Shown one piece after another: positions 14,049 through 52,959 of a DNA stretch of 64,000 nucleotides. The DNA is taken from the NCBI GenBank assembly GCA_951406725.2, contig OX597816.1, positions 121,768,001-121,832,000 on the forward strand, in the 5' to 3' direction. How positions within the stretch are numbered: position 1 is the first letter of the stretch; the number at the start of each line of letters is the position of its first letter. Below the pieces are notes generated by a model, which worked only from the letters and a program-made list of their open reading frames with translations, was not told the DNA's origin and made no database searches. The DNA comes from Octopus vulgaris (lineage: Eukaryota). The position numbers were made by a program, and so were the translations under genes.

Positions 14049-14242
14049 TCACGCTCAGAATTGCTGAAGCATGGAATAAACTGCCTGTGTCAGTTGTTGA
14101 CTGCCATGACACTGCATCTTTTAAGGCCCTCATGCTTTCCGAAATCCGCCGAAACTACACCTGATTATATATACACTTTAGATGAGTTGTAGTGCACCTG
14201 AGCACTGTACACAATTATTATTATTATTATTATTATTATTAT
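14049..14242 (+). mobile_element. CR1-type LINE 3' end with (ATT)n tail
   Basis: FTLRIAEAWNKLPVSVV....ASFK...* followed by a short 3' UTR and attattatt tail. Confidence 0.8.
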
Positions 14243-15249: not shown

Positions 15250-15351
15250 CTGTCTGTTACCAATTACTTTTTGCTCCCACATTTTCTGAACATTCCAAAA
15301 GAATGGTGCATCACACTTTTGACAAATATCACTTTCAGCCCAATCTGGAGT
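15250..15351 (-). CDS. WDFY2: WDFY2 coding exon ([34 protein letters not shown])
   Basis: FYVE N-terminal W..SD.C..C motif; AG/GT bounded, 102 nt. Confidence 0.97.
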
Positions 15352-16523: not shown

Positions 16524-16629
16524 CTCAACTCGTTTCCCATACATATTCCAAAATGCTACCATACAATCATCACCACCAGACAGGCATTGGTTAGAAATTG
16601 GGCAGTATATTAAAGCTTGAACTTTGTCA
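16524..16629 (-). CDS. WDFY2: WDFY2 coding exon (DKVQALIYCPISNQCLSGGDDCMVAFWNMYGKRVE)
   Basis: WD repeat; AG/GT bounded, 106 nt. Confidence 0.95.
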
Positions 16630-17514
16630 CTGGAATGAAGCAGATAACATAAACATAAAGCAATTTTTTTTAACCCCATTTAAATGGAGAAATCAAATTT
16701 GCAAGTTTAGAGCAAAAAAAAAAAGATGTGGTGGGGAAAAATAGACAATGATACAATAGGTATCAATGATACAACATGAATGACACTAAGTGGAAAGTCC
16801 TGGTTTTGTCATCTCTGTTCACTACACTACTTGGGTTTTGGTGTACTCCAGTCAGTTGGTGGCCCCTTGACTCAGTATAAATTTCTATTGCATAATATGA
16901 TCTGCATCTACTCCTGTAGGTATATACAAATGTATATGGTTGGTATATTTGTAGACAACACAATTGCAGTGTATAAATATCAAAAATAATGTCCATTTCT
17001 TTGCAGAGCATAGCTTCAATCAACAGACTTCTGAATTATGAGGCCAGCACACTTCCACAGCACCACTGTGTTCAACAAAAACTTTACAAAATATATGATG
17101 TATTATTTCTTTTATTGTCTGCTCTGGGTTACATCACCCATCAAATGTTATTTATTTTTATGCATTAGACTGAGTAACTATAGTAACTACACAACGCATG
17201 CTGCAGCACTAGGATGTCAATTTATTCACCAAAAGGTGACATTTCACTCTGCCAACACTTCAAGAGTCACTTTTGACAAACCATATGCACAGATCTATGC
17301 AGTGCAAATTTTTTTTGGGTATTTCTCCATTTGGCTTTTTTCAGATCAACTAGAAACAAATCAATTACATAAATACTTCCCCAAAGCAGCATAGCAACCA
17401 AACTTGCTAGTGCTATAACAGTATTTTATCCAATAGCAGTGGCAACATTTTTAGTCAATGCCAATTATATACAGAAATGATAACTCACTAACTCACATGC
17501 CTGAATTATGTTTA

Positions 17515-17857
17515 CAGTCGTGGCCAAAAGTTAGGAACATTTTTTTAAAAATTAAAATTAAAATGCCCAAGTACAATTTGATTCAAATATAACTTTGGGC
17601 ATTTAACCCTTTAGTTAGAAGTAATACTTATTTATTCACTTTGTTTTGAATTAATCATGCATTATCTTGAAATTTTGATGAGGTATCTATTAATTTTTAG
17701 AATGATATTGTAAGCCTGGTGTAAGAGGCTAGATCTGGACAATTTGAATATAAAACTGGTAGAATATTTTGGCCAGATATGGCCAATTTAAATACTGAAG
17801 GGTCAGTATAAAAATTCTAATTTTCAGACCTATGTTCCAAATTTTTAGCCATGACTA
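17515..17857. mobile_element. Tc1/mariner-type MITE containing a nested piggyBac-type MITE (about 17607-17802)
   Basis: Imperfect 25-bp TIRs cagtcgtggccaaaagttaggaaca / tgttccaaatttttagccatgacta; inner element starts ttaa-cccttt and ends gaaggg, related to 26680-26889. Confidence 0.7.
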
Positions 17858-18044
17858 AGTTTCAAGTGAACTATTTTTTTTCCAGTTTTCTTTTTAATGC
17901 TGAAGTTTTTTTTTTCTTAAGATTTTCTGAAAACAAAACTATTGCCATTGGCTTTGTGGTGTTTCAAAAATTAGAACAAGGAAATAAATACTTCTGAGTA
18001 AAAAATAAAAAAAAAACACTTTAGAGTATTTGGAAATAGGAATG

Positions 18045-18111
<67 letters not shown>

Positions 18112-18719
18112 CAGTAGTATGTGTAAATCATTATAGGATGCTTTCTGAAGAAAGATACTGTTGTGCTGACATCTTTGTTATTACTGCACACATAACCATT
18201 TCTGATACAAAATCCTTAATTTCACAGTTTAGTTTCAGTAGTATGTTGTTGATCTGTTAATCATTTCTGGATCCTAACATTTTTTGTTATAGCTAAGTAA
18301 AAGGAAGATGAGAGTAGTGACCAGGACCTATTTAGCAGAGTTTCCAAAACTGAAGGAAGACACAAACAAAAAAAGAAAGAAAGAAAAAAAACCCTAATGA
18401 AAGTCTGGTCCAAATGCTTGTAATATAGTGAAAGGAACCCCTCAAACCAGTTGATGGTGTTACACCAGTTGACAGGTTAAGTTTAGAACTACAGAACTGA
18501 TAAAGTCCACCTAATGAACTTTTACAGTTTCTGTCTACCAAATTTAATTTACAAGACTTCTCTCATAACACCTCAAGTCACTTGCACAAAGTGTTGTATA
18601 GTTGGACTGAATGCAGAACATCAAGGCAAAGCAAACCTTTTAATCATATGGCCGTGTCTATAATCAGTAACAATACACATTTATAACAAAGATAGTGGAT
18701 GTAGAAAATTTAAACTTAC

Positions 18720-18846
18720 TGATGTCCTTGCAATTCAAAAGCAGTTCCCCTTCGGCCACCTATATCCCACACAATGATGGATTGGTCAAAACTACCAGAG
18801 AAGAGTAATTTTCTAGAGGAATCCCAACTCAGGCTACGTACACTTC
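18720..18846 (-). CDS. WDFY2: WDFY2 coding exon ([41 protein letters not shown])
   Basis: WD repeat; AG/GT bounded, 127 nt. Confidence 0.97.
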
Positions 18847-19271
18847 CTGTTGACATTTGGAAAGAAAGGTTAAAAATAAAACCATGATTAAATAAAACTT
18901 TTTTTTTTGTTGAAAATAGGGAATAATATTCAGCATCTTATTGTGAACATTATCATCTGAAATCAATCTACTTTATCAAAAGATATCACATGACAAAGTT
19001 TTTTTTTGAGAGTTATAAGTGAGACTGACTGAAGAGGAAAGAAAGCTTTCCTATCTGCCTTCCTTTTTCTGTCAAGGGCTTATATGCCCCTCTATTAGAC
19101 TATTTTCCTTAGTCATTGCGCAGTGATTGCCATAAGCTTGAAGAGCATCTGCTCGAAAAGTTAAACCATCATTCTTTCCTTTCCTGAGCGTCTGCTAATA
19201 CATTACATGCACCACATCCTTGCATTTTTCTTTTTGTGTTTGTTCATTTTTGGATTTACAATATATATATT

Positions 19272-20433
19272 TTAGGTTGTTTCACGTGAAATGTCGTATT
19301 TAAAAGGTAACAATAAAATGTTTCAGAAGTGTTAGAGAACTAATTTATTTAATCAAAGTATGTTTACCCAACATTTTTCTATGTCATATATTCCATCTTC
19401 AAAAAAAAAAAAAAAAAAATCATCTTTTGCTGTGATAAACTGTCCGAACACTTCAATTATCTCTTCTCTATTTAAGAATGTTTTATTGCTTATGAAAAGC
19501 TCTAAATGCTTAAATAAGTATTGATCAGTAAGAGAGATGTTAGGGAATAGGGAGGATGTTGCAAAATCTCATAATTCAGGCTTTGCAACTTTTGGACCAT
19601 AGCTTGAGGAGTGTGAGGACACGCATTGTCTTGGAGCAAAATTGGGCCATCTCTATTCACTAGTCTGGGTGGCTTCTTTTTCAAATTCTCATGCATACAA
19701 TCAATATGATGTTGCGGTTATTTTTTTCTTTGTTGCAAAAATGAATAACTCCCTTCGCAGACCACCATACAATGACCAATAACTTTTTAGGGTGCAATGG
19801 TGGGTCTGGGTAGTGTTTAGGTGACTCTCCTGTTCTCTAGCTGTTGTCAAAGAACATTCATTTCTCATCACAAGTAATGATCTGATGCAAAAATGGTCTT
19901 TTTCCAGTTGAGAAAGCAATAAGGAGCACACTTCGAGACATCTAGTTCAGTGGATATGGAGCAAAACATATCTGTTTTCTTGACTCTTACAGGTGTCCAA
20001 AAACAGTTGTGCAAGATGTTTGGAGTTTTGTTGAAAGTTTTTGAACCTTTGTTCAACCAAAGCATTTAATCCATCATGCCACATAACTGATTTTGGCCTA
20101 CCTTGGTTTATTTTCAAGGCTATCATCTCCTGAATGAGAGTTTTGGAACCATCTCTGAGTAGTTCTGATGTCAACAAAACCATTACCCAAGGCCCACTTG
20201 ATATTCCGTAGAGCTTCTGCAGCAGAGTGACCCAGTTTGTACTCATACAAGAAAATCATTCATAGCTTGCTTGTTATCATTTTCATAAGGTCTATGGGTT
20301 GGGTATGAATTTTGTATACCAATATTGTTGAGAAAGAAAAAGAGTCAAGATTAAATGCAAGGTATACTTAACTGAGTGTTTTTAAATGACTGAAATAAAT
20401 TAAAAATGCAACATTTCATGTGAAAGAACCTTG
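19272..20433 (-). mobile_element. Near full-length decayed mariner transposon
   Basis: About 28-bp imperfect TIRs (aggttgtttcacgtgaaatgtcgtattt / aaatgcaacatttcatgtgaaagaacct) flanked by TA runs; motifs ITCDEK, LQDNACPH, HPPYS; many stops and frameshifts. Confidence 0.92.
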
Positions 20434-20435
20434 AG

Positions 20436-20460
<25 letters not shown>

Positions 20461-20466
<6 letters not shown>

Positions 20467-21415
20467 CATTTAGCATCTGCTTTCCATGTTGGCATGGGTT
20501 AGACAGTTTGACTGAAACTGGTAAGCTGGTGGGCTGGACAAGGTTCCATTCTAATCTGGCATGGTTTTTACACCTGGATGCCATTCCTAATGCCAACTAC
20601 TCCAAGAATGTAATGGGTGCTTTTTACATGATACTGGCATCAGCCATGACTACGGTTTTACTTGGTTTGACAGGTCTTCTCAAGCACAGCCTATCACCAA
20701 AGGTCTCAGTCACTTACCATTGCCTCCATGAGGCCTAATATTTGAAGGATGCCAGTTACATGATACTGGCACCAGCCACAACCATGATTTCACTTGGCTC
20801 CATAGGTCTTCTCAAGCACAGCATAATGCCAAAGGTTTTGGTCACTTGTCATTGCCTCTGTGAAGCTCAACATTTGAAGATCATGCTTCACCACCTTGTC
20901 CCATGTCTTCCTGATTCTACCACTTCAACAGGTTCCCTCCACAGTTAGAGATTGGCACTTCTTTACACAGCTGCTCTCGTCCATATGCATCACATAACCA
21001 TACCAACACAGTTGTCTCTCTTGCACACTGCATCTAATGCCTTTTATGCACAACTTTTCTTTCAAGGTGCTTACACTCTGTCGTACATGCACAGACATTG
21101 CACATCCAGCAAAGCATACTAGCTTAATTTCTTTCAAGCCTTTACATGTCCTCTACAGTCACAGCCCATGTTTCACTGTCGGGTAGCATGGCTGTTCGCA
21201 CACAAACATCATACAATCTGCCTTTCACTCTGAGCAAGAGGCCCTTCGTTACCAACAGAGGTAGGAGCTCTCTGAACTTTGCCCAACCTATTGTTATTCT
21301 AGCAGCTATGCTCTTGGAGCATCCACCTCCGCTACTGGCTTGGTCACCTAGATAATAGAAGCTATTAATTACTTCTAGCTTTCACCCCTGACTTTTGATG
21401 GAGTCTATTTTCTGT
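20461..21415 (-). mobile_element. RTE-clade LINE 3' fragment with 3' UTR and (GAT)n tail
   Basis: CSVQERQLCWYGYVMHMDESSCVKKCQSLTVEGTC; 3' UTR carries an imperfect duplication of about 120 bp; tail shared with the repeat at 28825-29030. Confidence 0.8.
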
Positions 21416-21681
21416 ACATATATGTTCAAAAGAAGTTTAAGTTAGAACTTTATTGTAAGCTTTATTCATTTGTTACTTATACTCCATTGCAAAGTAACAC
21501 ATGCCACATCAAAATATTGCTGCTCTCTAGCAACGTAGCATGCATCCTACCTTGAGAAACGCCTGTTTAGATAATGTTTACAAACTATAAAATTTAGCTC
21601 AATAAACAGATGGTAATTACTAAAAGGAAGACAGGCAGAAGTAAATGAGAGAGTGAGTGAGTTAGAGAGATGATTACTCAC

Positions 21682-21794
21682 CTGAATGTCCCTTGAAAGT
21701 AGTAATTAAATCAAAACAGTTGTTTTTAACTTTTAACACAGATATGTGTCCAGAATAATCTCCAACAAAGGCATATTTTGATTGCTCATCAAAT
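21682..21794 (-). CDS. WDFY2: WDFY2 coding exon (FDEQSKYAFVGDYSGHISVLKVKNNCFDLITTFKGHS)
   Basis: 113 nt; U12-type acceptor upstream and GTGAGT donor downstream. Confidence 0.95.
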
Positions 21795-24731
21795 CTTAAC
21801 AATGGTTAAGAAAAATAAATTAGTTATCACAACAGGAATATTTTATTCTCATTATGAATAGCAAATGAACTGAAAGGTCAAAGATTATCTCAAAAGCTTT
21901 TATTCAAAGCTTGGTTAAAGGATAATGTTAGAATGTAATTTAAGTCAGATAACGAGAAACAATATATGTTTGTGTGTAGATGCAAATGTGGAGAAAAGTT
22001 AGAAAGCGGGGTGTAGGGATAAACATTAACTGTATATATATATATATCAGTATATTGGCAGGATGAAAGGGCAACAGAGAGAGAAATCAAAGAGATGGAG
22101 AAAGAGGCAATGATATTAAAATACAAAAGAGAAGGAATAAGAAGCCTAAATGATACTACAAATAAATGAAATGATGAAGTAGATACACTACAAAAGAAAC
22201 ATCCATTATTTAATGGTTTAGTCATGAGAAACAGGACTAGAATCATGGTCTTTGCTTGACTGTTGAGACTGTTGAAACTGATGCAGTTGGTTTTTGACTT
22301 GAATATATCTGTAAAGTGACAGTAATGTGAGGGAAAAGGAATTCCAGATGGTTGATACTCTGTGTTGGTAATGATCATGTGACGGAAGGAAAGGATGCAA
22401 AAGATTAATACAGGGCCTTTGGGTGTAATGGAGATAAGAGACAAGTATGGTGATAACTTGGCGAAAGTCATAAGCAAACAGATATATCTGAGGAACAAAG
22501 ATCATTGTAGTAGAAAAAGCAAAGTAAGAAGATGGCATGTCATTGGGCTAGACACCTAGCAGAACTGGCTCTATGGAAGTCACACTAGTGGTCACCAAAG
22601 AGAAAGAAATCTGAAGTGATAAATGTCTGTAGTCAAGTTTGCTTGTTCACCCAATTTGGAAAAATTAAGCCATAACCATCTCATCTTTTTCTCTGACAAA
22701 GTACATTATTCAATGTGTCCTACATAAGACAATATGGTGTGATATGAGGTTTGACAGCTATTTCTAGCAGGTTGGATGACCTTAGTCACTTCTTTGGATA
22801 TGGTAGTAAAACAGAGTGAATATTGGTGGATAATAAATTGTTTCATGGATTGCTGCAAACCACTGTGTTAATAATCTCCGAGAGAAACAATCAGCTGGGT
22901 CAATGACTTGTGGTAAGGTTTCATATCCAAAGTGGATTAGTTGAAGGATAATACAGAGGTTAACAGTTCAGTTAATACATGTTGGATTTAATAATTCTTT
23001 CTAACTAATGTTTGGTACAAGGCCAGCAATTTTGAGGGAAGGGTGAAGTCGATTACATCACCCCCAGTGCTGCACTGGTACTAATTTTAATGACCTCAAA
23101 AGGATGAGAGACAAAGTTGACCTCAGTGGTGTTTGAACTCAGAATGTACAGAGTCAGAAGAAATGCCACAACTAAGCATTTTGTCTGACATGCTAATGAT
23201 TCTGCCAGCTCACCATCTTGTTGAAGTGAATAATGAAAAAGCAAAATGATGGATGACAGGACAGAATTTTAATCACAAGTGGCTTTCTGGATGATCCTGT
23301 TTCATATGTGTACAAGTAACAGGATAGAGGTTAGTTTTGAATTAGTTGCTTTTTCTTTGGAAAGACTGGAATCTCAGTCTCAAATGGTGGTATTTTATAT
23401 CACGGGTGATGCAGAAGATAATGCATGTCTTGCAGCCTGAGTAGAGTTGGCACTACTTCTCACCCCTGCCTTTTTTTGGCCTAGTCAGAAAAGGAGAGCA
23501 GCATTCATGATCTTTATTTCACAAGACTTCTAAGAGTGGTGCAGTAAAGAATGGAAGGAATCAGGACTTATGACTTACTGCTGCAGGAAATGAAGTTATC
23601 CTCAAACTGGAGATCTCATCCCTCTGCTTATCATGAAATAGCCAAGTTATGGTATTAAACCAAGAATTATTTTAGGTCCAGCACGCAAAAACAAATACAG
23701 TTTGATGGGCTTCTATCTAGTTTCCATCTGTCCAATTCCAATCACAATTCCACTTTGAGTTGACCCAAAGTAAAGGCAGAAGATAAAGTATACACAATGG
23801 AATTAAACCCAGAGCAACAGGACTGAAAAGCAAGCTTCTGAAATATGTCTCATGCCTGCAACCATTAAGATAAAGAACTGGCCCTCAAATCTTTTGCATT
23901 CAGGTAAATGTGTTACTGATTATATCACGAAGTGCACATCATTTTTTAAAGGAATGCAACATAGTATAGTTCTGGAGATGATTAGGTGAATTGCGAATCC
24001 ATGCGATGCATATGGTGCTTATGGACAAGAGTAAAATAGCTTGTGAAAGGCATGGCTTTTAAGTTTTAAGTTTCCTTCACAAGTCACACCGACTCATAGG
24101 GGCCAGTTTCTTGGTTTCCATGGTATGTAAATTCTTCAGCTGGACAGGATGCCTGACCATCACAGGATTACTCATTTTTGCCAGTAGAGTGGACTGGAGT
24201 AATGTGAAATGAAATCTTTAGTTCAAGAACACAATGCATTGTCTGGTCCAAGAATCAAAACCACAATCTTACGAGCATGAGTCCAATACCCTAATCATAA
24301 AGCCATGCACCTCCACAGGGCATGGTTTTGCAATGTGTTGCTGTACAAGATGGGTAGTTTCAGGACACAACAGTTGTGAATCAACAGAGTGAGGTCCCAT
24401 GTAATCTTTGAAGAGTAGCCCAAGTAGCCATGGAAAATGTAGAGGAAATTGCTGGATAAATGTAAAGATAACAGAGCTTGAAAAACTTCATTTTAAAAAA
24501 AGTTTAACATTTGTAATTAAAAGACCTGAAATTTTGTAGGTCATCTAATCTAAAATTATATATATAATTTGACATCAAAGTGTATATTTATCTATGTACG
24601 TAAAAAAAATGCATACACATACATGTAGATCGAGTAAGCATGTACACACATACCTAGCAAATATGCATGCACACATTCACACACACACACACCATAAAAA
24701 TTATTTGTAAACCAGAAGTGTTAAAGGATAC
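21795..24731 (-). other. WDFY2: U12-type (minor spliceosome) GT-AG intron of WDFY2
   Basis: 5' splice site GTATCCTTT (24731-24723); branch site TTTCTTAAC (21813-21805) ending 10 nt before the exon; no polypyrimidine tract between branch site and AG. Confidence 0.92.
22240..22620 (-). mobile_element. Old CR1/L2-like LINE 3' remnant
   Basis: Frameshifted RVSTIWNSF and DIFKSKTNCI resemble the R...WN.LP....FK end of CR1/L2 ORF2. Confidence 0.45.
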
Positions 24732-24882
24732 TCAAGGCAGAGGCACCATGAAGTGGCTTGATATCCTCCTAATCGTCGACCAGTTTCTGAACAATGCCAC
24801 TGGAAGTAACGGTCCCGGCCACAGCTGAGGACCCATTCACAGCTCAATGAAAATATAATAGCATTTACTCGACCAAAATGGG
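24732..24882 (-). CDS. WDFY2: WDFY2 coding exon (HFGRVNAIIFSLSCEWVLSCGRDRYFQWHCSETGRRLGGYQATSWCLCL)
   Basis: WDFY1/2 motif EWVLS.G.D..F.WHCSE.G.RLGGY; 151 nt. Confidence 0.97.
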
Positions 24883-26060
24883 CTGCAAAAGGAGAAGTAA
24901 ATAAATGTTTGTTAGGTGAAGAAAAGAAAAAACAAAATGGTGGTATTGAAACAAATAAACAAGCAAACATGCAACACAGTCTTTACCAATGCTATTGCTG
25001 TGGTTATTGTTGTATCCATTATATTAATCATTACATGCAAACCACCAACTTTTAAAGCGGGAGTGGCTTTTCCAACATCAAGAGAATAAATTATGTCAGT
25101 AGGGTCTTCTACTCTTTCTATCACTTCAGACAGTATGAGGGTTGTGCCAGTATTTTCAAAGCCAATTCTGTGGTATGAGAGAGAATAAGATTTAAACCCA
25201 GTACTTAACTGGTACTTTACAGACCTTGCAAAGGTGAAAGGTATAATTGACATCAGTGAGGTTTGTACTCAGAGTCTAGAGAGCCAGAACAAATACCACT
25301 AAGTATTCTAAAACTCAGATTTTTTTGGCCTGCCTCATTATATAACATATCACTATATTTAACCATCAATTATTATCAATGTGGTCACTTAAATTGATAG
25401 AAATAGTAGCTAAATCTTGTTTAAATCACAGCTCACAATCTTATAAGATGGGGGAAGGACATTAGATAATATAGTCCTAAGTATCTCTAAAAAAAAATTA
25501 GGATGGTCACTTCTGGAATGGATATACACAGGGTTGCTTGATCAGAGTTGGCTTGGAACAAACAAACAACAACCACAAAAACCATCCTCATCACCAATAT
25601 GGTTCTATGTAGGCTGGTATGGTTTTGTTATTCATCACTAGATTAATTTTGACCTATGAACATAGATACATTGGATACAGGGCTGAAAAAGATGGGATAA
25701 TAACAGGTGGAACATCTCTGATCATAAACATGCCCAAACAAAACGGGCTAAATAACAATAGATCTTATATAGAGTTACTTGGCTCCTTAATACAGCTCTC
25801 AAGCAAGGGTAATTGTAGTTAAGACACCATTATAACTAACAACATCTGTTTTAACATACAAAAATAGATTTTAAATGAAAATTATCGTACAGACACTTTA
25901 TAGATCATGATTAACCGTATCTGTTACTATTATGCAAAACTGCAAAAGCAACCTGATGAAGTTTTATGTCTAATGAAGGAATATTACATTACATTTATTA
26001 AAAGTTGGAATACCTATTAACTGTTGTCTAAAGAAAGACAGGCTTTGATTTCAAACTTAC

Positions 26061-26115: not shown

Positions 26116-28109
26116 CTGGAAGAAAAAAAATACAAACATATATATATCACCATCCTATCCTAACATCCATAAGACAAGTCTTATAATTGATGTAATTTTT
26201 CTATGGTCAGACACTTTTCCTGTTACCAGCCTTCACTAGTTTCCTAGCAGGACAATATTTGCTACAGTCTTTCATATGAGAGCTGGACATAAAACAGCAG
26301 TTGTAAATAAAGACAGTCTATATGGTGACTGTTTATTCTGCATACATGCTTATGCAACACTCAATATCAAGACTAGGGGAAGATGCACGCGTGCACATGC
26401 ACACACACACACACACACACAAAGCTTTGTATAGTTCCTACTGACAATTTTACTCACAAAGCCTTGAGGTGACCATTACTATAATCACCTTAGGGCAGGT
26501 GCCTCTAGAAATAGACATCTACCCTCAGTGCCATGTTAGGAGGAAGCTGAAATCACATGGTTGTGAAGTAAACTGCTTAACCTCGTGTGTGTGTTACAAT
26601 AATAATAATCAAAATACGGTACAAGGCTGGTAGAAATTGGGATGAGATGGTGGGTGGAACAATGGGTTAGTTGATTAATCCATTAGCATTTAAACTAGTC
26701 CAGAAATTCTTGATTTATGTTTAAACTGGCCAGATCCAGGTTTTCACACCTATCCAATCATGTCATTCTAAAATTAAACAATCATTTGATCAAAATCTTG
26801 AAGCATCAAGATAACATATAATTAATTCATAATAATGTGGATGCATTAGCATTACATTCGACAGAGCAATCTAAACATTAAAGGGTTAAATTAACATAGG
26901 TACTTGACAGGTACTGTATTTTCTTGACTTAGAGGCATAAAGGGTTAAGTTGACATTGTGACAGAATTTGAACCCAGAACAAATTTGAAGCCAGAATAAA
27001 TATTGACCTCAAATTTTGGTATAATGCAATTACATCGACCCCAGAGTTCAGCAGGTACTATTTTATTGACCCCAGAAGGATGACAAGCAAAGTCGTCCTT
27101 GGTGGAATTTGAACTCAGAATGTAAAGACAGACAAAATGCTGCTAAGCATTTTTCCTGGTGTGCTAACAATTCTGTCAGCTCACTGCCAAAGAGCCAGAA
27201 TAAATATTCCAAGGCATTTTGTTTGGTACCCTAATGATTTTACTAATTCACTGCAATAGCAGTAGTAGTAGTAAATTCTGAAATCGTTAATAATGCCACA
27301 AATTTTGAAGACAAGATATAGTCAAAGAATTCAGTGCTTGACTGGAATGTATTTTACTGACCTCATTGAAAGGATGAATGTCAAAGTGGCCCTGAGAATA
27401 TAAAGGAGGCATCTAAATATCACAAGATACAAACATCAAGTTTATGGGTGAAGAAACTTGATTGTATCAAAACTAGTATTTCCCTGCTTCTCTGGTACTT
27501 ATTTTATCAAACTCAGAATGTAATGGGATGGCTAAATGCCAAAAAGTATTTTGTTCAATACTTATCTCATTGCTTTATTTTTTTTTTATATATATAAAAT
27601 TATATTTTACATAGGCACAAAACCACAAATTTTGGATGGGGAAATCGTTTATTAAATATGTTACATTATTGACCACAGACGGATGAAAAATAAAGTTGAC
27701 CTCAGCAGGACTTGAACTAAGAACATAAAGAGTCAGAATAAATATTGTGTGGCATTTTGCTTGATACTTTAACAATCCTACCAACCCACCACTTAGGCTT
27801 AATTTCAAGGGTTTACATCCTCATCTGCCCTTAAAGTCCAAACAGTATGAAGATTCATTCAAGATTCTGTCTGCAGCTTGAAGAAGCTTAGGAGACACTA
27901 GCATCAGTTACTTAAAACAACCCCCCAGTATTTGGTTGGTACTTATTTTATCAATCCTAGAAGGTTGACAGGCAAAGTAAGCTCAGAACATAAAAAGCCA
28001 GAAACAAAGAACACAAAGCATTCTGTTCAACAAACAATTCTGCCAACCCATCATTTATTAAAGGACACACATAAAAAGATCAAGAGTAAAATTTAATCCA
28101 AATTTCATC

Positions 28110-31729: not shown

Positions 31730-31901
31730 TAAATGCATACACAGATATATCTACATGCAAGTATATATATCTAGACACATGTAATTTTTAACACTTTAGT
31801 TGAGTCCAAGAAATGAATTCTTTGTGAAGTGTTAGTGTCTCCATCCCCAAACATGTCCTAATCTTTCTAAGTGCCCCACAGTCTCAATAAACACCACATT
31901 A

Positions 31902-32131
31902 ATTTCTTTATTGCCCACAAGGAGCTAAACATAGAGGGGACAAACAAGGACAGACAAAGGGATTAAGTCAATTACATCGACCCCAGTGCGTAACTCGTAC
32001 TTAATTTATCGACCCCTAAAGGATGAAAGGCAAAGTCGACCTTGGCAGAATTTGAACTCAGAACGTAACGGCAGACGAAATACCGCTAAGCATTTCGCCG
32101 GTGTGCTAACGTTTCTGTCAGCTCGCCACCT
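31902..32131 (-). mobile_element. Young tRNA-headed SINE (type A tail) with TSD
   Basis: Head ggtggcgagctgacagaaacgttagc...gagttcaaattc, central gtcgactttgcctttcatcc..gtcgataaa; TSD aataaa(c/t)accaca at 31886-31898 and 32134-32146; near-identical copies at 35239-35470 and 56590-56820. Confidence 0.9.
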
Positions 32132-34139
32132 TTAATAAATACCACACTACTAAATTAAAACCTCTACCTTTATAAAGTACATTAACACCCATCATTGCAA
32201 AACATTTTTTTCACATTTGAAACTAAAAATGAAATTAACTTAATCAATAGACTGGCAGACATGTTAGAGCATCAGAATAAATACCTCACAGTATTTCTCC
32301 CAGTTCTTTATGTTCCAAGTTCAAATACCACCAAGATCTCTTCAGAATGAATAAAATAAAGTACCAGGATTGATCTAATCAACAAACCACTTTCCCCAAA
32401 TTTCAGGCTTCATAAATTTATTTCTATGTTAAAATCAATTGTTATTAAAACGGATGAGGTCAGTGGAATCAGAGCTTCAGAATAATCTTCACATTCTCAG
32501 ATCGAATCACACTAAGGTCAACTTATTAATAAACTAAGGTGCCAATCAAGTACTAGAGTTGATTTAATCAACACAATCCCTCCCACAAAATTTCAGGCTT
32601 TGTTCCTATGATAAAAAGATTTATATTTTATTCTGGATTGGAAGAATAAATATAGTATCAGACTATACATCTTATGGTATTTCTTGCAGATCTTTGCATT
32701 CTGAATTGAAATTCCACCAATGTCAATGAAATAAAAACCCATTTCTTTTAAAATTGCTGGCCTTGTGCCAAAATCATCATCCTCATGGCAGTGGCAGCAT
32801 GAGGATTGGCAGAATCATTAGAGTCAGCCAAAATACCTTACAATGTTTTTTTTTTATATTTATGCTGAAAGTTCAAATCCTGTAAGGGTCAACTTTGCTT
32901 TTCCGCCTTCCAGAGTAAAAATAAAAAAAGAATTAAAAAAAATAAAGTACCACTCAAGACTTGGGCTCAATAGTGTTGGTTAACTTTCACCCCTTGTCAT
33001 CATCGTTGTCGTTGGTGGCGTCGGCGTCATCATCATCATTATTATAGACATCACACAGTATACAATATCGTGAGGTTGTTGACTGAAGATATTGTGTCTA
33101 CTGGGAGTCTGTACTGTTTGTCAAGTCACAATAAGGACCTCAGACAGACAGTACTTTATGCAATATGCATGCAGTTCCAAGTAATGCCAACTTTTACAAT
33201 ACACCTATATTGTAGGATATTTCTAAAGTTTTCAAATGTTTTTTCAGATTGGGTGGTATTGAACCCAATGCTCCAATGACAATAGGAATAACCTTTATGT
33301 TTAACTCTCATAGCTGCCACATCTTAGCAATTTCAATTCTCAGGTCTCCATATTCATCAACCTTTTCTCTTTCTTTCATGATATGGTGATTTCCTGACAC
33401 TGCCATGTTAATTAGTAGGCACTCTATTGTTGTTATTGTTAAGATGGTTAGCAGGCAGAATTGCTAAAACACTGGACAAAATGCTTAGCTACTTTTTGTC
33501 TGTCTCTACATATGCGTTCAAATTCCTAAGTCAACTTTGCCTTTCATCCTTCCAGGGTTGATAAGATAAGTACCAGTTGAGTACTGATGTTGATGTCATC
33601 ATCAACTAGCACCTTCCGCTGAAATTGCTGGCTTTGTTCCAAAATTTGAAACCACTATTACTATTATTAATATTAAAGGAGGTAGACTGGCAAAATTGTC
33701 AGAGCATCAGAAATAAGGTTGTATGGTATTTGTTTGGGCTCTTTACATTTTAAGTTCAAACCTTGCCGATGTCAACTTTGCCTTCAATCCATTCGGTGTC
33801 AATAAATAATTTATCAAATATTAGGATTGATGGTACTGACTAATCTTTTCTCTTCAAAACTGTTGGATTAAAGCTTGATTAGAAACAATATACCCATGCC
33901 AGCATGGGAGGTAGATGTTGATGATGATGATACAAAATAATAATAATTGTTTTAAAGTTTTGGCACAAGGCCAGCAATTTTAGGGAGAAAGGGATTGTTG
34001 ATTACAACAGCTCTTGTACCCTGCTGGTACTTATTTTATCAACTCCAAAAGGATGAAAGGCAAAGCCGACCTTGACAAGATTTGAACTCAGAATGTAAAG
34101 TGTTCGAAGAAAGGCTGCTAAGCACTTTGTCTACCAAAT

Positions 34140-34890
34140 CACTGCTTTAATAATAAAAGTATAGAATAGACAACACTACCAATAGTGACAAATGCAGAAT
34201 GTATGGTGAGAGGGGTGAAATGGTATGGCACATTGTTAGTGAATGCCCGAAATTGGCACAATGCAAATACAAAAGATGCCATGACAATGTGGCAAGAATG
34301 ATCCATTGGGAACTCTGTGGAAATCATGGTCTACAAAGAGCAAAGATGTGGTATCAGTAAATCCTAGAAGGAGTCACCAAAAATGAGAATTGCAAAATCC
34401 TATGGGATGCAATGATCCAGTGAAATCACCTGACCAGACATAAGAAACCGGACATTGTTGTAGTAAATAAAAAAGAAAGAACATGTACGATAATTGACAT
34501 AGCATGCCCTGGTGACAACAGGATCAATGTGAAAGAAGAAAAAGTAAACAACTATGACGATTTAAAGTGGGAAAGAAGAAAAAATAAACAACTATGACGA
34601 TTTAAAGTAGGAAATATGAAGGTTGTTGTCAATGAAGAGAGTAGACATGATACCAATTGTAATTGGTGCACTTGGAAGTATCAGCACTCAACTACTAATA
34701 TGGCTGAAAAAGATCATTGCAAGTGTGAAGGTAGAACATCTACAAAAATCAGCATTGCTTAGAACTGCAAGAATTCTTCGCAGGGTTCTTGAAGTATGAC
34801 AAGTAAAAGAAGTGTTACCTTAGTCTGTGTGCTGTGGACAACTGACACTTTTTATCATATCCAGCAATATAAGCTGTGAGTTTTAATACA
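34140..34890 (+). mobile_element. Dong/R4-clade non-LTR retrotransposon 3' fragment (CCHC finger plus restriction-like endonuclease)
   Basis: CRMYG...WHIVSECPKLAQ..YKRCHDNVARMIHWELC, KPDIVV, IIDIACPGD, IPIVIGALG, LQKSALLRTARILRRVL*; ends at a TAA run; 40-bp internal duplication 34531-34610. Confidence 0.88.
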
Positions 34891-34899
34891 ATAATAATA

Positions 34900-35700
34900 C
34901 TTTCTTCTATAGGCACATGGCATAAATTTTTTTAGGGAGGGAATAATTCGATCATATCGACCTCAGGGTGTAACTGGTACTTATTTTATCGACTCTGAAA
35001 GGATGAAAGGCAAAGTCGACCTCGGTGGAATTTGAACTCAGAACGTAAGGACAGACAAAATTCTGCTAAGCATTTTGCCCAGCATGCTAATAATTCTGCT
35101 AGCTTGCGACCTTAATAATAATAATCCTTTCTACTAAAGGCACAAAGCCTGAAATTTGGGAGGCGGGGTCTAGTCGATTACATTGACCCTAGAACTTTGT
35201 CTAGCATAAGCATTTTATTCAGCATGCTAACAATTCTTATTTCTTTATTGCCCACAAGGGGCTAAACATAGAGCGGACAAACAAGGATAGACAAAGGGAT
35301 TAAGTCGATTACATCGACCCCAGTGCGTAACTGGTACTTAATTTATCGACCTCAAAAGAATGAAAGGCAAAGCTGACCTCGGCGGAATTTGAACTCAGAA
35401 TGTAATGGCAGACAAAATACCGCTAAGCATTTCGCCCAGCATGCTAACGATTCTGCCAGCTCATCACCTTCTTAATAATATTTCAAATTTTTACCACAAG
35501 GGCAGCTTGGAGGAAGTAGGGAAGAGTCGATTACATCAACCCCTGTATTCAACTGATACTTATTTTATCAATCCCTAAAGGATGAAAGGTAAAGTTGACC
35601 TCGGCAGTATTTGAACTCAGAACGTAAAGACAGATGAAATACTGCTAAGCATTTTATTGAGCATGCTAACAATTCTGCCAGCTCACCACCTTAATAATAA
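34900..35700 (-). mobile_element. Cluster of four co-oriented SINE copies with different tails
   Basis: Repeated head and central domain at about 34900-35112, 35125-35237 (internally deleted), 35239-35470 and 35480-35692, mostly separated by taataa tracts. Confidence 0.85.
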
Positions 35701-39159: not shown

Positions 39160-41345
39160 GTAATGTGTATAGGAACCACAAAATGGTTACACTGGATATT
39201 AAACTTGATGATTTAAAAAGACTTTATGCAGAAGTGAAACTAAGTTATATTGTCAGAACATGAAATCTTGCATCAGGAACAAAATGTGACAACAGAAAAA
39301 ATTATGTCAAGTGCTCAAGAAGCTACTCTGCTGACTGTCCAGACCATATTTTCCCATTGATCCAATATAATGCTTAAAATGGAATGATTTTTGAGTGTAT
39401 GTATCAAGGATCAGAATTGACGTAATGTGCCAATAATCATGATGGTAATTCAAAAAAAGAGCCAAAAGTTTATGTGATGATTTGCAGAAAAAGGAAAGTG
39501 AAACTTCAAATGAAGGAACCCTTTTTGAAAAGTAAAGTCTTGTTTGAAAGGTTTAAGAAGTGCATGAATTTGCACAACATAAAAATGATTGGTGAAACTT
39601 TAATCAGTGATACAGAGGACTGCTACTAATTATCCTAAACAGTTGAAGAAAATGATTGCTGCAGGGGATTACATACCAAAGCAAGTATACAATGTTGATG
39701 AAACTGCACTTTTCTGGAAGTGCATGCCTGCTAGAACCTTTATTTCTTGATAACAACAATCATTTAAAGCAGCCAGAAATCATCTGTCACTTCTTTCAGG
39801 AGGAAATGCCACAAGTGATATGAAATTAAAGCCCCTACATGTGCATCACTCCAAAAATTCTAAGGCTTTCAAGGGTTACACAAAGTTTAACTTCTGATTT
39901 TGTGTTCAAATAAGAAGGCATGGATGACTGAGAGCCTTTTCAAAGAGTGGTTTACACAAAAGTGTACAGTGCAATAGAAAGGTACAGTGCCAGACACAAT
40001 ATTTCCAACAGAACATTGCTTCTTTTAGACAATGCACCAAGCCACCCATCAACCTTAGATGACCTTTCTGATAATGTAAGAATAGAATATATCCTAAAGA
40101 ATACAACTTTGCTCTAGTGTGATATCTAACTTTAAGAGATATTGCATGAGAGGAAGTTGTAAAACAACTTATGAAAGCAATTGACTAGGAGGATAAACCT
40201 ACAGTTAGAGATTTCTGGAAGAAATTCAGCATAATGGATGTTGTGTATAATGTAGCTGAATCATGAGTTGAAGTGAAACCTTCAACTTTGAATAGTGCTT
40301 GGAAAAGTATATGGCCAGACTGTATTTATGACACTACAAGTTTTCTTCCAACAGAGAATGTCTGCATCAAATTTGGAAAGAAATTGTGACACTTGCAAAG
40401 GATGTAGGATATGAAGAAGTCAAAGAGGATGATGTAGTTGAGTTGCTAGTATCCCAGAGAGGAAGTTTATCTAACAAGAAGCTGATGCTGTTAGAAAAAG
40501 AAAAAGCTGAGAATACAGTGGAGACAGCAGAAGTTCCACCTAGACCACTTAAATTGGCTACAAAAATTATTGGTAAAAGGTTGATACTAATAGAGGGAGG
40601 TCTGCAGGTTTTTACTAATAATGATTCTAATCATGAACATTATAAAAATTACAAGTGGAGTTTACAATGAGCTTAGTTCCTGTATAAAGAGATGATGCAT
40701 CATAAACAGTAAACAACTTTGGATAAGTTTTTCACCCTTCAAGGTGATGCTGGTGATAATGAATTATAAGACAGTAAATATTTATCTCAAATTTTGACAG
40801 AAGGCCAGCAAGTTCAGAGGAGTGATAAGTCAATTATATCAACCCCCATACTCAACTGGTACTATTTTGATCAACCATGAAAGGCAAAATCAACATTGGC
40901 AGAATTTGAACTAAGAACATGAAGACAAGCATTTTGACCAGTGTGCTAATGATTCTGCCAGCTTACTGCCTAATGAATTATAAGAAAGTAAATATTGTCC
41001 TGTATCTTCCCAGTAATTCCACCATTCCACCACCACCACCCCTCACACAGTACTCTTACAATATAATGATTTTTATTAATTCCCTAATGTATTCCTCTTG
41101 AAATGTCTTTTGTGTTTTTATGTCTCTATATTGTACCAAGTATGTTTAGAAATTGTTATTTTCATGTATAAAGATAATAGGATTGCTTGTTATTTGTTGT
41201 TTTTGTTTTGGAGGGGGTATTCTTTGAAAAAGTCCATAGGAACATAATCTCACTTGATAATATGAAAATCAATAGAAAAATTCCACATTTCAGAAGTTCA
41301 CATTACAGCCAGATTTTCAGGAACAACTTAATATGGATTCCTGTA
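39160..41345 (+). mobile_element. Decayed Tigger/pogo transposon (TIGD1-like transposase)
   Basis: VYNVDETALFWKCMPARTFIS, GGNATSDMKLKP, SNKKAWMT, LDNAPSHP and C-terminal TTLDKFF (PIP-box-like, about 40713-40735); SINE inserted at about 40795-40970; right boundary tentative. Confidence 0.88.
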
Positions 41346-47589: not shown

Positions 47590-48722
47590 TACTTATGTCA
47601 ACTGGACATTTTGTCTTCATAACTTTCAGGACAGTAGATATTTTTTAGTGAAAATTTCTACAAAAACTTTTCAGATGTCATAGATTACATCAAAATTTAA
47701 TGTGAAATCTAAATGAGGAGGAGATATTTAATCCATGCATCTCAAATTTATTTTCCTCATACATTTTGATGATTTCATAACAATTATGTTGAAAAAAAAA
47801 TTACTTTTGAGAACTATTCCACCCTTTCCTGAAAATTCTATGAAAGAAATCTTTGTAGAAAGCAGTGTACAATATGAACATTAATTATTGAATACATATT
47901 TCTTTCAGTATTTTACTGCAATCTTAATTTCTCTCTCTTAAACAGTCTGGAAGGTGGTCTATCCCCTACATGGTTGTTTAGTATGGCTAGAAATAGAAGG
48001 GATCACATGTCTCAAAAATAATCTTTATTTTCAACATAACTGTAATTAAATCATCGAAACATTGAGGAAATAAGTTGATATGTGTGAGATATCCACCTTC
48101 CCCAATTATTTTTTTCCACACTAAATTCCTATATAATTATTATCTAAACCATCAAAAAGTTATTTGTAGAAAATTTCACTAAAAAAATTCCCACAAATTC
48201 CAATATAATAGGCACAGGTGTAGCTGTGCAGTAAGAAATTTGATTCTCAACCACATGGTTCCAGATTCAGTCCCACTACGTGACACCTTGGACAAACAAA
48301 AGCCTTGTTAGGGGATTTGGCAGACGGATGCTGAAAGAGGCCAGTCATGTGTGTGTCCCCACCACCACCACCACCACCACCACTTGACAAGTGTTGGTTT
48401 GTTTATGTTCCCATAACTCAGCAGATCAGCTTAGGAGATCAAAAAGATAAGTACCAGGCTTATTTGGGCTGATTTGTTCAACTAAAAATTCTAGGCAGTA
48501 CCCCTAGGATAACCAGTCTACTAATTGACACTAGTGAAAGATAATCATAATCTACCTCATCTGAAGTGTATTTGTAGAAACTTTCATTAATAAATATCCA
48601 TTTTTCAAAAAGTTATGAAGAAGGAAATTTAGTAGGGCACATTTCTGTAGTTATGCCCTAATTTTACTGGTCAAGTAAGTTATTAAACAAAAAAAGAGGA
48701 TTCAAAAGATAATTGGACATAA
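47590..48722. mobile_element. Foldback-like DNA element with long imperfect inverted repeats, interrupted by a SINE
   Basis: About 47640-47812 is the diverged reverse complement of about 48010-48187 (tttagtgaaaatttctacaaa / tttgtagaaaatttcactaaa); further match at 48570-48620. Confidence 0.6.
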
Positions 48723-50084
48723 CAATCAGAAAAATTACACAAACTAAGAATCAAATGTGTAAATTTGATTTAGTAACTAGCAGAAAACTGCCCAGAGAGC
48801 TGTCTTTCTGCTAGTTTTGTAAACTAATTGCTGCTAGTTTTGTCCTGAGAGGAAATGGTGTCACATACAGTTTCAGAAGTGAAACTCAGTAAAGAAACAG
48901 ATGGAATGTGCATTGACTCACTACTTCAGTGGAGTAATGCAATAGCTATGGTAGAAGAAACAGAGGATATAGTAATGCACCATCCCAGATTTGTATGTAA
49001 TATTACACTATGATTTTGAAAAGAGAAGCCTTAGATCTTAAGGAAGGAATTAAGGACAAGTTTAAAAATACATTTGTGGCTGACACGAAGGCTAATAGTT
49101 GCAGATACTGTGAAGTTTTTTGTTTTTTTTTAGTTATGCATCGTTCATGAGTTGAAAGATGGTCATGGTGTTTCCTTGAGTATTTAACAAAGAGGAGAAC
49201 AGAAATATGATGTTAAATGGTCTACCAAGACATCTTAGAAATATTATCTTCCTTGAAATAGGCTAAAAGCTAATACCAAATCTGTGTGGAAAGTTCAGGT
49301 CCTCTGAAGTTGGTGAAATTGATGTAAGAAGGTCGGCTGAAAAGTTCATAGGCTGCATAAGATACTTTTATGGAATGTGACTAAATGAGGTTTACTTTTT
49401 AAAATAGTCCCCCTTGTAGTCCACACACTTCTCCTACTGGTTATGCCATGCTTGGATCCTATTGGTGAAGGAACTTTCATCCTGTCACTCAAAAATGTCA
49501 TCAGCACTGTTACAGGGACGTAAACACACCAACACTGGTCACCAAGCAGTGATGGGGGACAAACATAGACACAACACACACAAAGTGCTTCTTTCAGTTT
49601 CTCTCAACTAAATCCACTCATAAGGCTTTGGTCGGCCTGAGGCTATAGTAGAAGACACTTGCCCAAAGTGCCACACAGTAGGACTGAACCCAGAACCATG
49701 TAGTTGGGAAGCAAGTTTGTTATCACATAGCCACAGAAGAAAGAACTTACAAGTAAGAGAAGGTTTCAATAAAGAAATTAATTGTAAGAAACAGGAACTA
49801 CAACTTATTTAATACAAAGTCAGTCCTGATTTGTCAAATGTATCACATGAACCAGTTTCTCTCTTCCTTTTCTTTTTCTCCCTAAAGACAACACAACGTA
49901 TCAAGAACTACATTATCCAATGTATTTTTCCATTTTTGAAACAGCACATTGAAATTTTAGGAAGATTTGGTATCTATTTCTAGCAAAACTTATAGATTTC
50001 CTTCTTTAGTTCATAGGACCAACAGTACATGAAGAACATTTTAAAGACTAGTATGTTATTCTGCATTCATTCTGTTATACAAGA

Positions 50085-51195
50085 CATAAGACAAAGCTAA
50101 GGAAAATGCTACAGACACAGTAAAAACAGAGAAAGTGGTTCTTCTACCCACTTATTTGGGAAGAAGGACTTCAAGAATTAGGGTGGAGGGAATTCCACTG
50201 GAAATTGACGTGGCTTGGATCTTGGCAGCTGTTCTTCTGGGAAGTGAGGAAGAAGTAGCTGTCCTCCAAGCCACAAAGAAGGAAGGCTCGGTTTGGAAAG
50301 GAAAAACAATGGATCTGATTGTACAGGCTGCAGTAGAGACACTCGAAAATTTAGTGGAGATAGTATCAGAGATATGGTGCTGAAAGTGTGGGTGGAGGGC
50401 AGGACTCCTCCCTGCTTTAAATGTGGCCCAAAAGGCCACATTAGAGCACACTGCCCTCTGCAAATGCAGGCCCTGGAAAGGATGGACAAGAGGCTGGAAA
50501 AGAAGCAAGAGGAGGAAAAGGAAAGAAAGGAAGAATGGAAAATTGCAGAAGGAAGGCAGAAAAAAGGAGAAACGAACAGTGTTATGTGGAACCCCACCTC
50601 ACCATTACTCTCTGAGACCCCCCTCCCCTACAGATACCGAACCCACCCATCCCCTCCTATACAATCCAAAAAGAAATAAGAAATGCAATCACAACAAAGT
50701 ACAAAGTATTCCCTTCCCCGTGAAGTAAATTATGTTTGTATACTGACAGACAACGAGAATAAGGAACTAATTTGGAAAGTAACAGGTTGGAAGACAGCAA
50801 AAATGGTTTATACAGAAGGATATAATAACACAATAAGGTGGCACATGTGTGTGCTGCTTTCAGAAAAGCAGATAGGAGAGGTGAAAAATTACAAAAAAAG
50901 TTTTAAGTTTTGGAAGATCAATACGGACATTAAAAGGATACCGGACAACATAAGGTATGAGAAACTATTGGTGAAATTTGGTGTTGATGTGGTAAAAAGA
51001 CTTCCAAGGAAGTAAGTGATGCTGCTTGAGGTGGGGAAAGCAGCACATTTCCATTTTCTCAATCTCGTTATTCATTCATACTATCATATTTATAACTTTA
51101 TTTGAATTTTATTTTAATTATTTTGTGTTATATGTCCCCACATGTGTTTGTGTTGTCCCCTCTTTGTTAGGCCCCTTGTGGGAAATAAAGAAATA
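50085..51195 (+). mobile_element. ORF1-only (gag-like CCHC) retroposon, 5'-truncated copy 1
   Basis: VVLLPTYLGRRTSRIRVEGIP, VWVEGRTPPCFKCGPKGHIRAHCP, stop at 51015, about 180-nt 3' UTR ending gccccttgtgggaaataaagaaa; no RT. Confidence 0.75.
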
Positions 51196-51199
51196 ATGG

Positions 51200-52892
51200 T
51201 TTCTTCAATGTTTGTATATTTATACTTTGCTTTTTGTACTGGTGTTTTATTCTTTTGAACATGTTGTGCTGCTTTGCAGCAGTTTGTTTGTGGTTTGTTT
51301 GTGCTTTCTCTTCTCGTGAAAGGAGAGGTAGCTTAGTAAAAACATATCTGTAGAAGATTATAGCTTCTCAGACATATTGTCGCTGGAAGAGGAATTGTTG
51401 GAGGCGGTTTGGTAGATGGACAATCAATTGAAGAAGGGGAAGAGGAATTTTGCCAATGTGGCAAAATGCCAGGAGAAGGAAATGGATATCGGAAAATTTG
51501 GAAGGTATAAAGATTTAGTAAGTTGGGATGGTTTTGAGGTGAAGCTGTCCCCCACCACAAGTGACACATAATAACAATAAGGAAACAATAATGTACTGAA
51601 TCTTTTCAATAAGTAAAGGAAAAATTGACATTGTGACTACGGACCAGGTGGAAAAGGCTATGAGACCGATATGGAGCGATATTGTGTACCTCGCAAGAGG
51701 TTTGATGTTTGGAGTAGTGGTGGTGAGGTCCAAGGACATAGCAACAGCAAGGAAACAAGAAGCGACATCCATCAAGAGTGAAGAAGTGGTGTTTCTGCCC
51801 ACTTACCGAGGATTAAGAGCAACAAGAATCAGTGTAGAAGGAATTCCGCCAGCGAGACAGATGTGGCCCGGGTAGCAAACACTGTCTTTCTTGGAAACAA
51901 GGACAACATAGTGGTTATCCAGGCCAGAAAAAAGGAAAGCATGATATGGAAGGGACAAACACTGAACCTGATTGTTCAAGGATCAACCAAGACTCTGGAA
52001 AATATCAGAGTCAATAATTATGGATGATGTGATAATGACGGTCCAGGTGGAGGGCAGAGTCCCCAGCTGCTTTAAATGTGACCCAAAGGACCACATTAGA
52101 GTGGATTGCCCTTCATAGACCAAAAAAGCAGAGGAGAAGTGACTGAAGAATATGGAGGAGCAAAAGGAAGAGAGGTTGGAGAGTTCCAGAAAAGAGGACG
52201 GAGTAGTAGCAATGGAGGACAAGTGGGAAAAAGTCACTGAAAGAAAGAGAAAGCAAGTGTTTTGAACTCTAAACCTCAACCCACACCCTCTCAGACCCAC
52301 CCTCCCCCACAGACACGAAGCCTACTCATTCCTCTCCGACACAAAAACAAAAGAAAAAGAAAACAAGTACACACAAAACCCCTCAAACTCCCTCCAGCCA
52401 GACAGAAAAGAAAAAATGTATTGTAATAATGTATGATGATTCAAATGAGGAATTATGTAAGGAGGTAATGACATGGGAAGAGTGTAAAAAATGGAAACAG
52501 AGGGGTATGACAATGTTAAGAGGTGGAACCAATGTGTGGTATCCACAGAGGAATAAAAGGTGAGGTTGACAAGGCATGAAAGTGGATATGATTGGTGGGA
52601 TGTGGAACTTGATTGGAACAAACTACCAGACCTTTTAACATATGAAAAATTGTTGGAAAAGCATGGTGTAGACATTTTTGAAGGTTCAAGGTATAAGAGA
52701 TGTTAGAAGGCAGAAATGGAGTTGCTCAGAGGTGGGGCTGAGTAGTTTCATTGCATTTTCTCATTTTCATTATCATCATGTTCTCATATGTTGATTTGAT
52801 TTTTTGACCTTTTCTTTCTCTTTTTGTTTTGTGTCCCCATATGTTATGTATTGTCCCGGCTGTGTTAGCCCCTTATGTGCAATAAAGAAACA
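51200..52892 (+). mobile_element. ORF1-only (gag-like CCHC) retroposon, copy 2
   Basis: VVFLPTYRGLRATRISVEGIPP, VQVEGRVPSCFKCDPKDHIRVDCP, same 3' UTR ending gccccttatgtgcaataaagaaa; no RT. Confidence 0.75.
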
Positions 52893-52959
52893 ATGGTTTC
52901 TTTCAAGGTTTGAAGAGAAGTCTTTAACTTAGTTTTTAATGAAATGACGATATAGAAAA

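Follow-up and report, generated by a model that had tools for sequence, protein, structure and literature searches.

Copies of one short interspersed nuclear element (SINE) family in a 64-kb stretch of the Octopus vulgaris genome end in a small hairpin, in which a CUUGU consensus loop is closed by a four-pair stem that changes from one tail type to another while its pairing is kept. The same tail ends two elements that carry the first open reading frame (ORF1) of a long interspersed nuclear element (LINE) and no ORF2. The stretch (64,000 nt; assembly GCA_951406725.2, contig OX597816.1, positions 121,768,001 to 121,832,000, forward strand) is called the window here, and all coordinates count from its first letter. 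The hairpin is real and better supported than in the first-pass annotation that pointed it out. We consider it to be probably the 3' cis-recognition element of a stringent-type lineage of retrotransposons without long terminal repeats (non-LTR), with binding and function predicted from the comparison of copies.

The tail hairpin and its compensated stem

The SINE family comprises 31 head-and-core profile matches on both strands of the window (E<=0.1), many of them chained at 27-28 kb and at 32-36 kb. Its copies are 190-240 bp long, interspersed and non-coding, and make up a short multi-copy repeat. All five 13-mers quoted in the first-pass annotation were recovered (32758-32770 on the plus strand; 33961-33973, 35250-35262, 35492-35504 and 56601-56613 on the minus strand), each at the 3' end of a copy of this one SINE, although the copy at 32758 has its core deleted. 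The tails had been described as otherwise dissimilar, and this was not borne out. A tail-seeded search showed that types B (UGGC-CUUGU-GCCA) and D (UGCC-CUUGU-GGUA) are colinear with each other and with a fourth, previously unreported type A (AGGC/GCCU, six copies), and all types, including C (GCCC-CUUGU-GGGC), align without a gap over 37 nt as CCUC-N8-stem4-CUUGU-stem4-N6-GAAA. Over these positions the consensuses are identical at 26/37 (A-B), 20/37 (A-C) and 17/37 (B-C), and the C tail has about 18 extra nt upstream of the common module compared with A and B. Among the three tail types originally proposed, B and C occur in several copies, whereas D rests on a single one that differs from the B consensus at 15/37 positions (p 0.003-0.03) and is probably a separate subfamily. 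The alignment holds 17 tails (6 A, 5 B, 1 D, 3 C and two non-SINE tails, E1 and E2), kept from 24 candidate regions inspected. The other seven were set aside, five for want of a recognisable tail, one because its SINE core was unclear and one because it was decayed and mis-anchored; this choice biases the set toward pairing.

Within this alignment 58 of 68 stem cells were paired (85.3% versus 57.1% after shuffling, matched in 0 of 500 shuffles; 26-54% in slid registers), confirming that the stem changes with pairing kept. Three stem pairs vary on both sides (pair types UA/AU/GC, GC/CG/GU and GC/CG/GU/UG) around a constant closing C-G, and 18 cells carry a double change. RNAalifold recovered the same three outer pairs unprompted, mainly via covariation. 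Since the copies are related by descent, we repeated the pairing test on the type consensuses. Covariation was present at this level too, which the first-pass annotation had made decisive: A, B and C show four double-sided changes and no broken pair, a result matched by 0 of 20,000 column shuffles (39 of 20,000 for B versus C alone). Neutral simulations started from three hairpin-bearing ancestors, 200,000 for each, never reached it. A covariance model (R1) recovered the 17 copies it was trained on at E<0.005, and no other site in the window scored under E 0.5. The loop had been called invariant; CUUGU is the majority in every type, but is exact in only 9 of the 17 copies (UUUGU in four, four other loops once each).

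The bare count of CUUGU hairpins is within chance: nine four-pair examples were seen in the window versus 4.55 expected (maximum 8 in 40 Markov resamples), and three of the nine lie outside SINE tails. As the hairpin is this common by chance, its position and register carry the signal, not the number of motifs. The extended motif CCTTGTG-N9-GAAA occurs four times against 0.075 expected.

The 3' ends are likewise fixed. Target-site duplications (TSDs) of 26, 20, 16 and 15 bp delimit four elements of three types, namely the SINEs at 40783-40970 (26 bp, 25/26 identical, 40757-40782 and 40971-40996), 31902-32133 (16 bp, 14/16 identical, 31886-31901 and 32134-32149) and about 56589-56822 (15 bp, 56574-56588 and 56828-56842), and E2 with the 20-bp repeat. 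All four end 1-2 nt past GAAA and 11-12 nt past the stem, without poly(A) or microsatellite and with no more than part of the last 8 nt repeated. The three SINE TSDs, variable in length, come from 13 copies, the others being ambiguous in ATT-rich chains. Because the TSD-defined ends are fixed in this manner, the ATT runs that follow other copies are better read as target sequence than as tail. Most A and B copies lie in ATT-rich chains, and the C and E copies at AATG-like sites. A Helitron-type terminal hairpin was ruled out by the 15-26-bp TSDs, and a poly(A)-signal context was rejected because only C and E tails have AAUAAA after the stem.

The ORF1-only elements E1 and E2

The tail-seeded search also placed the C-type tail at 51152-51196 and 52850-52893, at the ends of two plus-strand elements without SINE head or core. 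E1 (50055-51194, 5' end approximate; hairpin 51171-51183) is a 5'-truncated, frameshifted ORF1-only non-LTR element with a partial RRM-like region, a CCHC knuckle, a K/E- and P-rich linker, a C-terminal domain of about 100 amino acids and a 3' untranslated region (UTR) of about 180 nt. E2 (51215-52891; decayed hairpin at 52868-52880) is complete at 1,677 bp and consists of a 5' UTR of about 200 nt, a decayed ORF1 running from 51416 through N-terminus to C-terminal domain, and a 3' UTR of about 190 nt. It contains no ORF2, has no space for one between 5' UTR and tail, and is flanked by its TSD (51195-51214 on the left, 52892-52912 on the right, both plus; 19/21 aligned positions match). E2 is an ORF1-only non-autonomous LINE derivative. 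An LTR or gag-only identity of E1 and E2 was rejected, as self-comparison gave no terminal repeat. The best match between the C tail and the E1/E2 tail spans 51 aligned columns with 6 mismatches and one gap. E1 and E2 themselves are 62% identical over 1,139 columns and most alike at the tail (49/60 in the last 60 columns versus 60.8% elsewhere, nominal p 4.5e-4).

Both elements join the same 20-mer. The left TSD of E2 directly follows the 3' end of E1, the right one lies at the start of a piggyBac-like coding region, and the transposase of this element lies downstream; two diverged families therefore have their ends at one and the same nucleotide. The 20-mer might instead be part of the element's end and not of the target; the TSD-defined SINE ends argue against this, and the case is a single locus. 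The host is a decayed piggyBac-like transposon (52913-55281, plus; PF13843, E 3.8e-27) with a TTAA-type 3' end, whose 5' end was not found in the window.

A profile of the decayed E1/E2 frames detected 98 ORF1 relatives at E<=0.001. An AlphaFold model of one relative, P0068 (predicted local distance difference test score 83), shows two RRM-like domains, followed by a CCHC knuckle, and matches tandem RRM proteins (Sxl 1b7f, E 2.3e-5; La RRM, Z 8.9, root-mean-square deviation 2.7, 82 aligned). On the strength of this model the ORF1 is predicted to be a type I LINE ORF1 (RRM-RRM-CCHC), an architecture described outside L1 too, for the L2, CR1, Jockey and I clades (PMC4120745). The C-terminal domain (50680-51012, plus) has no Pfam match and recurs in the relative P0013 (E 8e-12). 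In the gene models of P0013 and P0065, two of the 98 relatives, this ORF1 is joined to transposon domains (Helitron Rep/PIF1; IS1595/Merlin-type transposase), a hint that DNA transposons are a frequent location of the element. A PDB sequence search with the ORF1 returned weak zinc-knuckle matches only, and the ESM Atlas gave leads only (RRM_1, DUF4780 and PRE_C2HC; zf-CCHC and RBD_ZCCHC3 clusters; one unnamed cluster mostly from Mollusca). Word-indexed protein searches found no match, by which fused ORF1-ORF2 models are neither shown nor excluded.

A probable recognition element, its candidate partner and the rival explanations

How the hairpin might act follows a known scheme. The ORF2 protein of the partner would dock on it, reading the loop specifically and the stem as a shape, and target-primed reverse transcription would start at a fixed distance downstream, at an AAT-like target. 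Related LINE families, or master copies that followed one another, may have given rise to the stem variants, and the SINE may have captured the variant tails by template switching, a route of tail gain proposed in PMC4824008. The C tail would correspond to only the last 45-52 nt of an E-type 3' UTR, downstream of the last T4 run; these runs end 72 and 63 nt from the 3' ends of E1 and E2. The limit is expected, because a T4 run would otherwise stop RNA polymerase III. E1 and E2 are presumably non-autonomous and, like the SINE, would need an ORF2 protein in trans. The cis-recognition reading, first put forward with the annotation, is partly supported by the terminal position of the hairpin, its fixed consensus loop and compensated stem, the constant distance to the junction and the conservation of the E1/E2 tails; binding by a reverse transcriptase (RT) is its predicted part.

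Several observations weigh against it. The RNAalifold consensus energy is only -1.29 kcal/mol, with a folding term of -0.27, which corresponds to a weak hairpin. The innermost stem pair is broken in 5 of 17 copies, and the hairpin is missing from the minimum free energy fold of several of them, E2 and the young C copy at 35258 among these. Folding predicts a bulged lower stem for C and E1, but a universal lower stem was rejected (72 of 136 lower-stem cells pair over all types, and 435 of 500 shuffles reach the number of double-change pairs). The null models assume independent sites in a frame anchored on the motif itself, and there are only about four independent double changes among three consensuses built from 6, 5 and 3 copies. 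A clear TSD was found in only 4 of 15 elements tested, and one other 60-column window of the E1/E2 alignment reaches 47/60. On the protein side, no RT or endonuclease family was detected in the 135 frames scanned (of 198 with at least 62 amino acids in the window) or on any of the 98 ORF1 relatives, an ORF2 carrying this tail was seen neither in the window nor among these relatives, and no LINE-side donor was found for tails A, B and D. The earlier statement that the partner LINE is absent from the window thus needs qualification: it stands for RT and endonuclease frames of a plausible partner among those scanned, but two ORF1-only LINE derivatives at 50.1-52.9 kb do carry the C tail. The search for a LINE bearing the hairpin, proposed with it, yielded ORF1-only carriers of the C type and no carrier with ORF2.

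Could the hairpin have been selected for a step other than recognition by the RT, such as stabilising the RNA, protecting its 3' end or letting the RRM-RRM-CCHC ORF1 protein package it? Here the tail is linked to one protein only, an ORF1 that binds RNA, RRMs ordinarily take U-rich loops as ligands, and neither the window frames nor the 98 relatives revealed an ORF2. The 11-12 nt between stem and junction, fixed in four TSD-defined copies of three types, point to priming instead, and in ZfL2 the protein that binds the hairpin is ORF2 (PMC4176376). We regard selection for another step as unlikely. Quite unlikely, in our view, is an origin of the A/B/D and C/E tails from unrelated LINEs, with a loop common by coincidence or convergence. 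It would suit the low B-C identity (17/37), the 4.55 CUUGU hairpins expected per window by chance, the different surroundings of A/B (ATT-rich chains) and C/E copies (AATG-like sites) and the several unrelated LINE partners that bivalve SINE cores commonly use (PMC11481361). However, loop, closing C-G, an upstream pyrimidine block and GAAA occur in one ungapped register, CCTTGTG-N9-GAAA is far in excess of its expectation, no type has poly(A), the distance to the end is equal in all, and the change from A-U to U-A within A/B is compensatory independently of C.

Neutral inheritance from a common ancestor, with matched stem changes produced by quasi-palindrome template-switch correction or by chance, fits the few independent events, the weak folding energy and the decay of old copies in loop (8/55 cells) and stem (11/88 cells) alike. 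The simulations, moreover, covered independent sites and not correlated mutation. Yet the independent-site nulls gave 0 of 200,000, the higher conservation of the E1/E2 tails and the fixed spacing are left unexplained, and 4-bp arms are short for template switching; we consider this explanation very unlikely.

With the hairpin read as a recognition element, the identity of the partner can be narrowed. The TSDs of 15-26 bp and the lack of a terminal microsatellite argue against an L2-type partner; in the four clear cases the TSD starts 1-2 nt after GAAA, leaving no L2-clade terminal tandem repeat. We favour an L1/Tx1-like clade, with a little less than even confidence, on account of the long TSDs, the joining of both families at the same piggyBac nucleotide and the tandem copies that sandwich a TSD. 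A partner from the CR1 group (Rex1/L2/CR1) comes next and is doubtful. On a possible likeness of the tail to Rex1/Babar 3' ends the literature search gave nothing. Tentatively, and as the more demanding version of the L1/Tx1 assignment, the window may document an animal L1/Tx1-group lineage with stringent, poly(A)-independent recognition, in which one CUUGU hairpin, read at a set distance from the site of priming, serves several diverged LINE families together with their ORF1-only derivatives and three or more SINE tail variants.

One LINE fragment, inside the interval of the first-pass annotation, was rejected as partner. The 5'-truncated LINE 3' end at 34157-34897 (plus), which we take to be R4/Dong-like from its motifs (Pfam gave nothing useful), has a 3' UTR (34797-34900) that matches only itself and contains neither the tail nor a covariance-model match. 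It shows zinc-knuckle-like and PD-(D/E)-type endonuclease motifs, is itself disrupted by a 28-bp internal duplication, and has TAA runs on both sides, with a type A SINE lying tail-to-tail to it.

Relation to known systems and hairpin copies in the window

A fixed loop with an exchangeable stem at the 3' end of SINEs and LINEs is already established, for L2 of eel and zebrafish and L1 of maize, so the hairpin alone is not surprising. In ZfL2 a loop swap abolishes activity and a stem swap is tolerated (PMC4176376), and a role of a bulge in the L2-type stem-loop is described in PMC1636434. As in UnaL2/UnaSINE and ZfL2-1/ZfL2-2 of the L2 clade (PMC1636434, PMC4176376), the octopus hairpin is 3'-terminal and common to a SINE and a LINE-derived element, its loop is fixed and its stem exchangeable, and C and E1 are predicted to have a lower stem with a bulge. 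The octopus elements differ in having another loop, no terminal short repeat such as TGTAA, and TSDs of 15-26 bp. The analogy to UnaL2 drawn in the first-pass annotation therefore holds for the mechanism only. The loop of UnaL2 is GGAUA.

The closest precedent for the covariation is the L1-lineage hairpin of maize and sorghum (ME1 with ZmSINE2/SINE2-1; PMC3747384; Ohshima 2012), with a compensatory stem, a conserved loop, an L1-group context and a conserved 4-nt 3' flank (CGAG there, GAAA here). Those are plant elements with another loop, whereas an ORF1-only carrier and ends without poly(A) distinguish the octopus case; most plant L1-clade LINEs terminate in poly(A) (PMC3747384). E2 resembles the ORF1-only LINEs HAL1, HeT-A and Ag-Sponge (PMC5786205) in being complete, TSD-flanked and equipped with ORF1 without ORF2, and differs by its RRM-RRM-CCHC ORF1, the C-terminal domain without Pfam match and a structured tail common with a SINE. 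Tx1 of Xenopus has a piggyBac derivative as a target, and SINEU-3 occurs in tandem copies with a TSD between them (PMC4494074); insertion into DNA transposons, seen here at one locus, and tandem copies around a TSD are points of likeness between Xenopus Tx1, crocodilian Tx1-Mar/SINEU and the octopus elements. A SINE mobilised by the same machinery would be a further likeness. SINEU, however, ends in poly(A), and a LINE sharing the 3' end of SINEU-1 was not found, while the octopus tail is shared and lacks poly(A). None of the 58 pairs tabulated in PMC3747384 joins a SINE to a Tx1-type element through a structured 3' tail (Tx1 appears there outside the table only), and the portion of the bivalve survey PMC11481361 at hand mentions Tx1 nowhere. 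Our literature search found no description of this SINE tail or its partner, though repeat databases (Repbase, Dfam and Zenodo consensus sets) may already contain the family.

SINEs make up 11.6% of the O. vulgaris genome, where 893 of the 900 families active in recent times have no classification (PMC13282606). The shared module and the ORF1 offer two direct routes to the partner LINE, and the natural stem variants around a single loop lend themselves to testing the model of loop specificity outside L2. A partner of L1/Tx1 type would bring an animal example to the question whether recognition in the L1 group began as stringent. If one hairpin serves several families, then LINE families, ORF1-only derivatives and SINE variants should be cross-mobilisable.

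Among the individual hairpins, type A is found at 35138-35150 (minus, loop UUUGU, overlooked before), 14755-14767 (minus) and, decayed, at 34911-34923 (minus, SINE about 34897-35114), 32595-32607 (plus) and 27613-27625 (minus); at 56069-56081 (minus) the position is strongly decayed. Type B comprises 32758-32770 (SINE 32634-32775), 33961-33973 (SINE about 33948-34135), 23013-23025 (minus), 40795-40807 (minus, in the SINE with the 26-bp TSD) and a decayed copy at 33629-33641 (plus, SINE about 33440-33655). The single D hairpin belongs to the SINE at about 35480-35693, colinear with B. Type C is represented by 56601-56613, by 31913-31925 (minus, with one C-to-U change that keeps the pair as U-G; SINE with the 16-bp TSD) and by 35250-35262 in a full SINE copy (about 35236-35472). 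This last copy is followed at 35207-35240 (minus) by the A-box region of a further member of the family and, judging from this junction, appears to have inserted into a SINE head. A perfect 13-bp inverted repeat at 56819-56849 spans the 5' TSD of the C copy there, suggesting a template switch at the 5' junction.

Head-to-tail SINE chains occupy 27005-28052 (minus), 32249-32919 (plus), 33445-33815 (plus) and 34897-35693 (minus), each new copy lying at the ATT-rich end of the previous one, and at 14816-14988 two copies stand head-to-head in opposite orientation. A- and B-box-like motifs, which would suit a tRNA-derived SINE, were read by eye against the consensus. ARAGORN found no tRNA gene and Rfam no match under E 1 at 31.8-36 kb. 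Short exact core and tail motifs, in a comparison aimed at the named core superfamilies (CORE, Deu/Nin, V, Ceph, Meta/MESC, alpha and beta), had no match in the supplementary files of published SINE papers that were searched, and two scans that looked for stray copies in genomes of bacteria and archaea gave none. A different SINE at 12905-13235 (minus), presumably CORE-like, holds GGA-CUUGU-GCC about 60 nt before its 3' end, with the same loop and the closing pair replaced by A-G; it did not match the tail covariance model.

Beyond these elements, exons at 10.7-25.1 kb (10700-25100, minus) encode a WD40 and FYVE protein (PF00400, PF01363), which we take to be WDFY1/2-like. Two LINE ORF2 C-terminal fragments, presumably RTE-like, lie at 5394-5578 (plus) and 21128-21312 (minus) and are 74% identical. 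Long imperfect palindromes resembling miniature inverted-repeat transposable elements or foldback elements occur at 54547-54920, inside the piggyBac-like element, and at 47641-48186.

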